From Candidatus Methanomethylophilaceae archaeon (GTDB lineage: Archaea > Thermoplasmatota > Thermoplasmata > Methanomassiliicoccales > Methanomethylophilaceae), in the NCBI GenBank assembly GCA_050944155.1, contig JBMNQN010000002.1, positions 1-64,000 on the forward strand: DNA of 64,000 bases. Direction: 5' to 3'. A program made the position numbers and the translations under genes. Below, piece after piece: positions 2,310-62,375 of the stretch (position 1 is its first letter; the number at the start of each line of letters is the position of its first letter). The notes beneath the pieces were generated by a model. That model was not told the origin of the DNA. It did no database searches and saw only the letters and a program-made list of their open reading frames with translations.

Positions 2310-2649
2310 ATTAAATCACCTCGTCTGTTGAGACGAAACGTGTAAACATAGAAGACGTATAAATAAACTTATCCTTGAATAAGTGTCCTTTCTTAAGAAG
2401 GGATATACGTATGCGCATCGCATCGGATCCTCTGCAACCGCCGGAATTTTTTTACCGGATATCGGAAGGCGGTTCCGCATTTAACTCTGCGGCGGGATTC
2501 TGGCACATACAATTCTGCGAATGCGCACACCGTATCTCTGCAATTATATCAGATGTATGCGAAGTAATTGCGGATTATCATCGTGTCATACGAAGTAATA
2601 ATGCGTCGGACGCAGAAAGTTTAATTACGGATGTGCAAAATCGATTATT

Positions 2650-2997
2650 ATGGCAGATTAGAATGCCGCCCGGGCAGAGGACATGCTGGTTTTCCTCGGT
2701 ATACACAGGAATGCCGCAAAAATCTTTCTGCACATGGCGGTAAACGGCAGCACCACATCCGACGATTTGGAAAAAGCGCTGAACATGGGTCAGCCCAGTG
2801 TATCTACCGCGATAAAATTCCTCAACGATATGAATTGGCTGCGCACCGAGTTCATAAGATCCGACGGCAAGGGACGTCCGAGACACAGATATTCCCTCGC
2901 GGAAGATTTGGACACCACAATCGGCGAAATCGAAAACCTGGTCAATGAAGCGATATGCAGACTGAACGACGGTCTGGAATCCCTCAAAGTCTTGTGA
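2650..2997 (+). CDS. Winged-HTH transcriptional regulator (COG4738-like); probable start 2650 with in-frame TAG at 2659-2661 (ORF track starts at 2683)
   Basis: LGIHRNAAK...QPSVSTAIK.L...W...GKGRP..RYSL motif; ATG GCA GAT TAG AAT... in frame; TTTAATTA box at 2620. Confidence 0.75.
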
Positions 2998-61457: not shown

Positions 61458-61742
61458 AAAATTCTCATCCTCATTTCCATTTTATTTCGTTTTTTCCTGC
61501 GGAACAGCGTAAGTTTTCGGTACCGTTTCCGGCAAATCCCGCCGATATTCCGATTATGCGCGCCGCACAGATCCGATTGTTTTTCGCCTGATGCGAATGT
61601 GTTCCCGGGACGGAGACGAACCCGCCTTTTTCGGCCGTTGTTGCATTCGCCGTACACCGTCGGAACGCCGTTTCGGCTCCCGAACGGCACCCGGATTGTT
61701 TCGCGCTATAATGTTAAATAGAGTGACAGAATCAGTTAATTC

Positions 61743-62375
61743 ATGGCGATATTCAGAATCGGTTCCCCCGTTCCCTACGATTCAAATATCTACCTCGTCA
61801 CCGGCGAGCGCACGATGCTGGTGGATACGGGAACCGGAAAGGCATCCGAACCGATTATCGGAAATATCGCGGAAATTCTGAACGGCAGAAAGCTGGATTT
61901 CGTGGTTCTGACCCACGGACATTTCGACCACATCGGCGGCCTGAAAGACATAGTCTCGAAGTTCCGTCCCGAAGTGTCGGCGGGCGCGGCGGATGCGGAA
62001 ACAATACGCAGGGGAGGCAGAGATTCCATCTTCGGAATGACACTGCACCCATGCGAGAACGTAAAAGAACTGTCGGAAAACGACATAATCGACTTGGGCG
62101 ACCGCCGTTTCCGCGTCATAGAGACGCCGGGACACACCGAAGGCTGCATATGTCTGTACGACGACGAATCCGGAGACCTTTTTTCCGGAGACACGGTGTT
62201 CGCCGACGGAATCGGACGTACCGATTTCGAAGGCGGCAGCATAACAAGCCTCAGAGAATCACTGAGAAAGCTTTCGCGGCTGAAGATCAAAGGACTATAT
62301 TCCGGTCACGGTCCCTGCGTCGAAAACGGCGGAGGAGAATCCGTAGCCAGAGGGCTCGTTTATGCCGGAGGATGA
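61743..62375 (+). CDS. Metallo-beta-lactamase-fold hydrolase
   Basis: THGHFDHIGG, TPGHT, SGDT, GHG. Confidence 0.92.
   Translation: MAIFRIGSPVPYDSNIYLVTGERTMLVDTGTGKASEPIIGNIAEILNGRKLDFVVLTHGHFDHIGGLKDIVSKFRPEVSAGAADAETIRRGGRDSIFGMTLHPCENVKELSENDIIDLGDRRFRVIETPGHTEGCICLYDDESGDLFSGDTVFADGIGRTDFEGGSITSLRESLRKLSRLKIKGLYSGHGPCVENGGGESVARGLVYAGG

Follow-up and report, generated by a model that had tools for sequence, protein, structure and literature searches.

An in-frame amber codon, probably read as pyrrolysine, near the start of a winged-helix regulator gene in a Methanomethylophilaceae archaeon

The archaeon considered here belongs to a lineage of methyl-reducing methanogens. In Candidatus Methanomethylophilus alvus, 1.6% of stops are TAG, 16 extra proteins were predicted to contain pyrrolysine (Pyl), and the pyl genes were argued to be constitutive, making an in-frame amber mutation a stable change (Borrel et al. 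2014, BMC Genomics 15:679). Proteomics of M. alvi found Pyl in 12 of 15 expressed proteins for which it had been predicted (Kivenson et al. 2024, bioRxiv 10.1101/2024.09.30.615893); the same preprint proposes a 'Genetic Code 34', describes Pyl mostly as lineage-specific singletons, some of them near protein ends, and points out that where a TAG lies near the N-terminus the annotation misses the part ahead of it. Here we describe a further candidate—a gene for a small winged-helix transcription regulator whose fourth codon is an in-frame TAG. It lies in the window, by which we mean the first 64 kb (64,000 nucleotides) of contig 2 (JBMNQN010000002.1) of assembly GCA_050944155.1, a Candidatus Methanomethylophilaceae genome of 1.04 Mb in 27 contigs that is 92% complete.

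Work on Methanosarcina acetivorans provides the other points of reference. A UAG in the sensor kinase RdmS of this species gives rise to long and short forms, and its pyl genes respond to methylamine (Shalvarjian et al. 2025, PNAS, PMC12626013); charging of tRNA-Pyl is reported to depend on the substrate (Britt et al. 2026). MreA (MA3302) is described as a global regulator of methanogenic pathways in the same organism (Reichlen 2012).

The reading that we favour, with confidence a little above even, is that the protein is made from the ATG at 2650 and carries pyrrolysine at residue 4 as a tolerated substitution. Translation would start at this ATG, probably on a leaderless mRNA; Pyl-tRNA(CUA) would decode the UAG at codon 4, placing pyrrolysine in the first turn of an N-terminal helix; and the product would be a 115-residue MreA-like winged-helix transcription regulator beginning MAD-Pyl-NAARAEDML. 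The amber mutation would occupy a variable, solvent-exposed position as a near-neutral change rather than as a regulatory device. That this UAG is read as Pyl, how efficiently it is read, and that the mRNA is leaderless are points that we infer. A first-pass annotation, made from the letters of the window alone, had proposed the same product, which we also judge the most likely given the start, the helix, and the pyl system. Its further proposal, that the TAG gates the protein on pyrrolysine status, did not hold up: the TAG is not conserved, an Orc1/Cdc6 gene appears to depend on TAG decoding, and ATG2683 offers a possible Pyl-independent start.

Start codon, conservation and fold of the regulator

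The regulator is one open frame that reads ATG (2650-2652), GCA, GAT, TAG (2659-2661), AAT GCC GCC CGG GCA GAG GAC, ATG (2683-2685) and closes at TGA 2995-2997; the continuity of the frame from ATG2650 through the TAG to ATG2683, which the first-pass annotation had reported, agrees exactly with the letters of the sequence. A six-frame search found homologues in 29 of 151 sampled family genomes and in 16 of 16 genomes of the genus. At 28 related loci, as far as the available flanking sequence extends, the neighbours of the gene are the L44e/S27e ribosomal-protein genes on one side (divergent) and rpiA on the other (convergent), and these conserved flanks mark the genes as positional orthologues. 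All 15 other genus orthologues begin at an ATG that precedes the residue aligned to M2683 (Met12 of our protein) by exactly 11 codons, and all are 115 codons long. Their N-termini follow the pattern M-[S/L]-x6-A-E-[D/S/N/Y], which MAD-TAG-NAAR-AED in the window matches in length and in its Ala-Glu-Asp motif.

The sequence ahead of ATG2650 is consistent with this start. The AT-rich box that had been noted 30 nucleotides (nt) before it is indeed present, TTTAATTA at 2620-2627, as is the site with which it had been compared, TTAAATA at 61714 ahead of an ATG at 61743. Across the genome, in 616 long open reading frames (ORFs), AT-only 8-mers are most frequent at -30 relative to the first ATG (36 ORFs, with a background of about 5), so TTTAATTA sits where a leaderless gene starting at 2650 would have its box, and the TATA spacing indicates that the regulator mRNA is probably leaderless. 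The 15 genus orthologues have a conserved ATTAATATAT box in the same alignment column as TTTAATTA; it stands at about -33, versus -30 here, and ends about 23 nt before the ATG. With 15 of 15 starts aligned and the position of the box shared, the layout at 2650 is not a chance pattern. Judged by this alignment, ATG2650 is the ancestral start, and the earlier description of a leaderless-looking gene with its original start at this codon stands.

The downstream ATG2683 is less well equipped for initiation, as had also been remarked: no clear ribosome-binding site precedes it, only a GAGG at 2677-2680 that ends 2 nt from the ATG. In the same 616 ORFs, Shine-Dalgarno-like motifs start mostly at -13 to -10, whereas this GAGG starts at -6, and its letters also serve as codons for Ala-Glu-Asp, which is conserved in the N-terminal helix. 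Another AT-only 8-mer, ATTATTAT, lies at 2644-2651, 39 nt before ATG2683, in a shoulder of the genome-wide distribution (16 of 616 ORFs at -39).

The TAG is real and no assembly error. Two independent DNA runs belonging to different studies, X11 (a digester) and X15 (a landfill), have contigs that span 2379-2885 and show 0 differences, so that the codon, whose read support had been marked for checking, is carried unchanged in both. No strain variation was seen in the two runs compared, which as contigs would hide rare variants. DNA runs that contain this stretch come from digesters, landfills, sludge, and bioreactors. The gene body also appears in contigs of two RNA libraries (2679-2949 and 2733-2889, both at low depth); none of the RNA contigs covers 2650-2678, and they cannot decide where the transcript starts.

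At the column of the TAG, orthologues carry the sense codons GAA, GAC, AAT, AAG, GTC, and GGC. Fourteen of the 16 genus orthologues have no TAG; the two that do have it at different codons—codon 4 here and, as assembled, codon 2 in G102, a 72%-complete metagenome-assembled genome (MAG). The comparison of orthologues that had been suggested as a test thus shows sense codons in 14 of 16 and a TAG that is not conserved. Opposite M2683, the other 29 family loci have Leu, Ile, or Ala; five distant homologues with normal N-termini have Met there, which makes Met12 a tolerated substitution. In G102, too, a Met is new: it stands at codon 8, a position occupied by Leu in the nearest relatives of G102 (L012, L014, L016, and L018). 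Among 80 metagenome and 80 species-representative loci, whose printed translations were read by eye, every locus with upstream sequence has an N-terminal stretch of about 11-17 residues, and no stop was found inside that stretch at any of these loci except in G102. Our regulator retains 12 of 12 invariant columns, and its divergence from relatives (47%, against 49-50% for other deep lineages of the genus) is in step with that of rpiA; on this evidence the gene is not decaying.

The best named match of the protein is the NCBIfam model MreA (NF053756), at 68.9 bits. This is below the 100-bit cut-off, and we therefore call the protein MreA-like rather than file it as a member, although the model is matched by 24 of 24 aligned orthologues (best E-value 8.2e-41). 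Pfam MarR_2 and TrmB gave sub-threshold matches only, while profile matches in the PDB were the Lrs14-like 6cmv, 2d1h, and 1ku9. An AlphaFold model built from the 24-sequence alignment (predicted local distance difference test score 91.5) has one helix at residues 2-15, a winged helix-turn-helix, and a long C-terminal helix—a single TrmB/Lrs14-like winged-helix domain with four helices and a wing, and without a sensor domain; Foldseek matched it to 6cmv and 3r0a. The model bears out the earlier suggestion that the N-terminal stretch is helical, and in it a start at Met12 would remove 11 of the 14 residues of that helix. Members of the MreA-like family are also present in MAGs whose labels go no further than Thermoplasmata or Ferroglobus. 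The gene is unlinked to pyl or mtm genes; at every locus checked it lies between the ribosomal-protein genes and rpiA.

The features of the locus are collected in Table 1, where the labels BRE (B recognition element) and TATA at 2614-2627 are ones that we presume from consensus knowledge. Two further ORFs, of 122 codons (2375-2743, + strand) and 102 codons (2578-2886, - strand), overlap both the regulator and its promoter in other frames and look like chance frames.

Table 1. Features of the regulator locus, in window positions
Feature	Coordinates	Strand	Basis
Promoter-like element: purine-rich AGAAAG (BRE-like) followed by TATA-like TTTAATTA (2620-2627)	2614..2627	+	Spacing; alignment column shared with the boxes of the genus
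Ancestral start ATG, probably lying at the very 5' end of a leaderless mRNA or beside it	2650..2652	+	Aligns with 15/15 genus starts
In-frame amber TAG, codon 4, most likely pyrrolysine	2659..2661	+	Two DNA runs; orthologues with sense codons
Full coding sequence of the predicted 115-residue MreA-like / Lrs14-like winged-helix regulator, TGA 2995-2997	2650..2997	+	Profiles; predicted fold; synteny
GAGG, weak Shine-Dalgarno-like, badly spaced for ATG2683	2677..2680	+	Starts at -6
Internal ATG (Met12), possible fallback or re-initiation start giving 104 residues, with most of the first helix gone	2683..2685	+	

Pyrrolysine machinery and the use of TAG across the genome

The pyl genes share one 4.6-kb contig, on which the 3' part of mtmB is followed in turn by a tRNA-like element, pylS, pylB, pylC, and pylD. 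The four Pyl proteins all score above their NCBIfam cut-offs (bits, with the cut-off in brackets): PylS 273 (178), PylB 420 (348), PylC 300 (248), and PylD 205 (150). The pylT candidate, found by reading the DNA by eye, is a 71-nt tRNA-like element upstream of pylS with a CUCUAAA anticodon loop (CUA) and a CCA end (L001:636-706); it is 90-97% identical in 14 of 15 other genus genomes, where it also stands beside pylS. ARAGORN, Rfam, and our own anticodon-loop pattern scan all missed this element, its predicted fold is no better than that of shuffled sequence (z = -1.0), and automated pipelines would report this genome as having no pylT. With this element the genome has all five of pylTSBCD, as the first-pass annotation had supposed from the lineage. 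PylS is above its cut-off in 15 of 16 genus genomes, including G102, the exception being a 76%-complete genome. The partial mtmB (277 bits) is cut by the contig end so that its Pyl codon is not visible, and profile searches of the 92%-complete assembly gave no match for MtbB or MttB. The pylB frame itself stops at a TAG (L259:2615-2617) one base before the start of pylC, and read-through would add 19 residues overlapping pylC out of frame; because the PylB model ends about 11 residues before it, this TAG may belong to the small number that mark a natural gene end.

TAG is rarely found at the ends of genes. With a coding-score gene finder, TAG-terminated ORFs number 11 of 947 (1.2%) here and 10 of 1062 (0.9%) in the relative G035. 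Both values lie below the 5% taken as the upper limit for a TAG that is rare as a terminator, as in M. alvus and the Code 34 organisms. A first call on longest ORFs had given 4-6% TAG stops and is superseded, about one third of its ORFs being shadow frames; on that set, with its many shadow ORFs, 12 of 41 TAG read-throughs would run for more than 60 nt into another gene in a different frame, a class ('Category 4') of which a Code 34 organism should have few or none. At 7 of the 11 TAG-ending ORFs the G035 homologue aligns across the TAG, which is not proof in each instance: for pylB the extended frame runs into pylC, and coding scores are low for three of the ORFs.

For internal stops, we compared the 1.17-Mb contig of G035 with this genome by tblastn (about 300,000 aligned residues each). 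Raw in-frame stops came to 29 TGA, 21 TAA, and 8 TAG in G035 and to 22 TAA, 12 TAG, and 12 TGA in this genome, most of them either preceding the true start where an ORF had been extended too far or falling at natural C-termini. Once the cases were read manually in both genomes, the convincing internal stops were nearly all TAG. In this genome they comprise those of the Orc1/Cdc6 gene, an RNase III-like gene, the regulator, and a 327-residue protein on contig 13 that aligns to its end across the TAG. In the RNase III-like gene (G000 contig 5, base 47997; L123:1150-1152) the TAG falls inside the Pfam domain and corresponds to Pro in G035. The best-flanked TAGs of G035 are codon 14 of a conserved 187-residue protein and residue 174 of 184 in a second protein; weaker cases there are two other genes and a membrane protein whose right flank is identical at 3/20 positions. 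The 187-residue protein (G035 contig 1, base 1091591; L251:11591-11593) belongs to no Pfam family and has Ser at this position in the present genome. With stops other than TAG, the candidates amounted to one ORF that is decayed or a shadow and has three stops, one C-terminus that is shorter, and two small ORFs of doubtful status. Among 14 TAGs with coding-like flanks, most look by eye like shadow frames, and only 4 of the 14 were put through Pfam; as controls, a stop falls inside a Pfam domain at 1 of 20 TAA sites, in a permease gene, and at 1 of 51 TGA sites, in an aquaporin gene that has a TAG as well.

The Orc1/Cdc6 replication initiator is a case in which decoding seems hard to do without. 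Its in-frame TAG is codon 40 (G000 contig 12, base 12543; L256:244-246); the Walker A motif and the AAA, Cdc6_lid, and Cdc6_C (winged-helix) Pfam domains all come after it. The other 410 of its 411 codons are open, the protein is 83% identical to the G035 copy with TAG flanks identical at 19/20 and 14/20 positions, and its only paralogue is 27% identical. We conclude from these comparisons that this gene, one of an essential type, probably needs TAG decoding, and this dependence implies that Pyl-tRNA is probably required at all times, in line with the argument of Borrel et al. (2014) for Ca. M. alvus. A table-11 annotation would truncate the gene or miss it.

Taken across the genus, TAG appears to be almost unused as a stop and to occur inside conserved genes. 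The near-absence of TAG stops, together with the TAGs within conserved genes, is what suggests that the amber codon of the regulator is tolerated and near-neutral. Two genes that do look broken were also seen. An aquaporin (MIP) gene (G000 contig 16, 14308-15111) was considered as a Pyl example and rejected; it has a TGA near codon 24 as well as a later TAG, which makes a pseudogene most likely. A xanthine/uracil-type permease domain (G000 contig 20, 7106-8098) is broken by an in-frame TAA and looks like a second nonsense pseudogene.

Alternative readings of the amber codon

Several observations weigh against pyrrolysine at residue 4 as a tolerated substitution. A strict automatic filter failed to separate the three stop codons and dropped Orc1/Cdc6 too; we regard the filter as too blunt, and the list of credible cases is accordingly one of manual curation. 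Nonsense pseudogenes do exist in this genome (the aquaporin and the permease), so an in-frame TAG alone is no proof of decoding. Methanosarcina is reported to read UAG both as stop and as Pyl (Shalvarjian 2025, PMC12626013). The sole RNA contig that reaches the 5' side of the regulator (run X17) begins at 2679 and not at 2650, a weak and inconclusive hint given its low depth. Finally, both TAG-bearing orthologues own a unique new Met (codon 12 here, codon 8 in G102), a pairing with a post hoc p of about 0.01-0.05 by rough estimates; it suggests that the UAG terminates at least part of the time and that the downstream start matters.

That pairing also speaks for the alternative that survives best, which we nevertheless consider unlikely: two products from one mRNA. 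Read-through with Pyl would give the 115-residue protein, and termination after Met-Ala-Asp followed by re-initiation 21 nt downstream at AUG2683 would give one of 104 residues, with the ratio of isoforms following the supply of Pyl-tRNA as a by-product, no selected function being required. The downstream in-frame Met is absent from the other genus orthologues, and the start of the RNA contig at 2679 would fit the shorter form. There is precedent in M. acetivorans, where the UAG of RdmS yields long and short forms (Shalvarjian 2025, PMC12626013) and tRNA-Pyl charging varies with methylamine supply (Britt 2026). Yet Met is found at the 2683 position in five distant homologues with normal N-termini, the GAGG is poorly spaced for ATG2683, and the Met12 form would lose 11 of the 14 residues of a helix present throughout the family. 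Nor do the other internal TAGs come with a nearby rescue: the first Met lies 34 residues after the TAG in Orc1/Cdc6 and 38 after that in the 187-residue protein of G035, while the Met 11 residues after the RNase III-like TAG is shared with G035 and so is not new.

Some of the same evidence could be read as a shift of the start codon, in which the TAG would be a plain nonsense stop, the old start would be dead, and a shortened regulator would be made from ATG2683 only. We hold this to be quite improbable. The Leu-to-Met change at 2683 is unique and has a parallel in G102, ATTATTAT stands 39 nt before 2683 within the shoulder of the distribution, the RNA contig beginning at 2679 would agree with such a start, and a standard table-11 ORF scan gives the frame only from 2683. 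Against it, both independent stops are TAG and neither is TAA or TGA, there is no frameshift, and the Ala-Glu-Asp motif and the 11-codon spacing are kept. The promoter box is still at -30 of 2650, and the AT-rich stretch before the ATG is also present in relatives and is thus no new TATA box. TAG, moreover, is almost never a terminator here, and Orc1/Cdc6 needs its decoding.

A functional version of the two-product scheme seems to us very doubtful. A leaderless mRNA with an early UAG and, a few codons on, a new in-frame AUG would act as an isoform selector sensitive to Pyl-tRNA, evolved independently in two species (codon 4 with Met12; codon 2 with Met8). If this were true, ample Pyl-tRNA would give the full regulator, whereas scarce Pyl-tRNA would give a peptide of 1-3 residues, re-initiation, and a helix-less variant with altered activity, coupling an MreA-type methanogenesis regulator to pyrrolysine supply.

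Less credible again is a dedicated switch gated by Pyl, as the first-pass annotation had envisaged, in which the early UAG was selected so that the regulator or its long isoform needs charged Pyl-tRNA and its regulon is tied to methylamine status. The idea gains some appeal from the best named match, since MreA is described as a global methanogenic-pathway regulator that represses methylotrophic genes in Methanosarcina (Reichlen 2012); the match, however, is below the cut-off, and the family extends to the MAGs labelled Thermoplasmata or Ferroglobus. An early UAG on a leaderless mRNA would be a cheap place for a checkpoint, but the in-frame ATG2683, 7 codons past the TAG, is a possible Pyl-independent start. 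Two of 16 species have independently acquired an amber codon within the same short stretch of the N-terminus, where by our own estimate about 0.005-0.05 further TAGs would be expected, and two in roughly 160 N-terminal codons is far above the genome-wide rate of in-frame TAG; against this, variable protein ends are where neutral TAGs are expected to collect. The 14 of 16 orthologues without TAG, the differing positions of the two TAGs, and the absence of any in more distant homologues speak against a selected device. The gene is not linked to pyl or mtm genes, and with a TAG in Orc1/Cdc6 the supply of Pyl can hardly drop; a supply of charged tRNA that changes with conditions is documented for Methanosarcina only.

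That the gene is dead or the TAG an artefact—an assembly error or a recent inactivating mutation, with no protein made—is scarcely believable even in a reduced genome with nonsense pseudogenes (aquaporin with TGA and TAG; permease with TAA), given the identical sequence in two independent DNA runs, the intact remaining frame with its invariant residues, a divergence typical of deep genus lineages, and the presence of the gene body in contigs of two RNA libraries.

Comparison with known systems

Pyrrolysine at residue 4 as a tolerated substitution, the reading to which we return, has practical consequences for annotation. Standard gene callers will annotate the regulator from Met12 and miss its true N-terminus, and other genes of the genus will be split or truncated; TAG should be treated as a sense codon when genomes of this genus of methanogens, which comes from digesters and landfills, are annotated. 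It would also extend the M. alvus-type pattern of TAG-to-Pyl reading to another genus of the Methanomethylophilaceae and bring a transcription factor into the set of predicted Pyl proteins. The amber codon that recurs in two species, each time paired with a new Met, is a small, testable case of whether UAG is still ambiguous or follows the Code 34 view.

Start-stop and minimal upstream open reading frames (uORFs), in which an AUG stands directly or nearly before a stop, tune downstream initiation in plants and in E. coli. If the UAG terminates, the AUG-GCA-GAU-UAG seen here and the AUG-UAG of G102, each a few codons upstream of an in-frame AUG, would resemble such elements; unlike them, this 'uORF' is the gene's own ancestral start, is in frame, and has a stop that can be decoded by a natural suppressor tRNA.

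As a small single-domain winged-helix protein without a sensor domain, the regulator is similar to MreA and to the Lrs14-like / AbfR2 regulators (6cmv, 3r0a). It differs from MreA in scoring 68.9 bits against a cut-off of 100, and MreA has been studied in an acetate-using methanogen. With RdmS it shares the combination of a regulatory protein, an in-frame UAG, and a Pyl-decoding methanogen; RdmS, however, is a large kinase with its UAG in a PAS domain, its short form is truncated and not re-initiated, and in the published account a regulatory use of the UAG is not shown there either (Shalvarjian et al. 2025).

The closest resemblance is to M. alvus and the Genetic Code 34 organisms. Here as in those, there is a complete pylTSBCD set, TAG ends about 1% of ORFs (1.6% in M. 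alvus), and in-frame TAGs occur in conserved housekeeping genes as lineage-specific singletons at non-conserved positions (Borrel et al. 2014; Kivenson et al. 2024). The differences are that this is another, uncultured genus, not among the eight named in the pertinent section of the preprint, and that the protein concerned is a transcription regulator whose TAG comes after just 3 codons of a leaderless-looking mRNA. Most likely, then, the case is one more instance of the genome-wide reading of TAG as Pyl described for the Methanomethylophilaceae, and no special switch.

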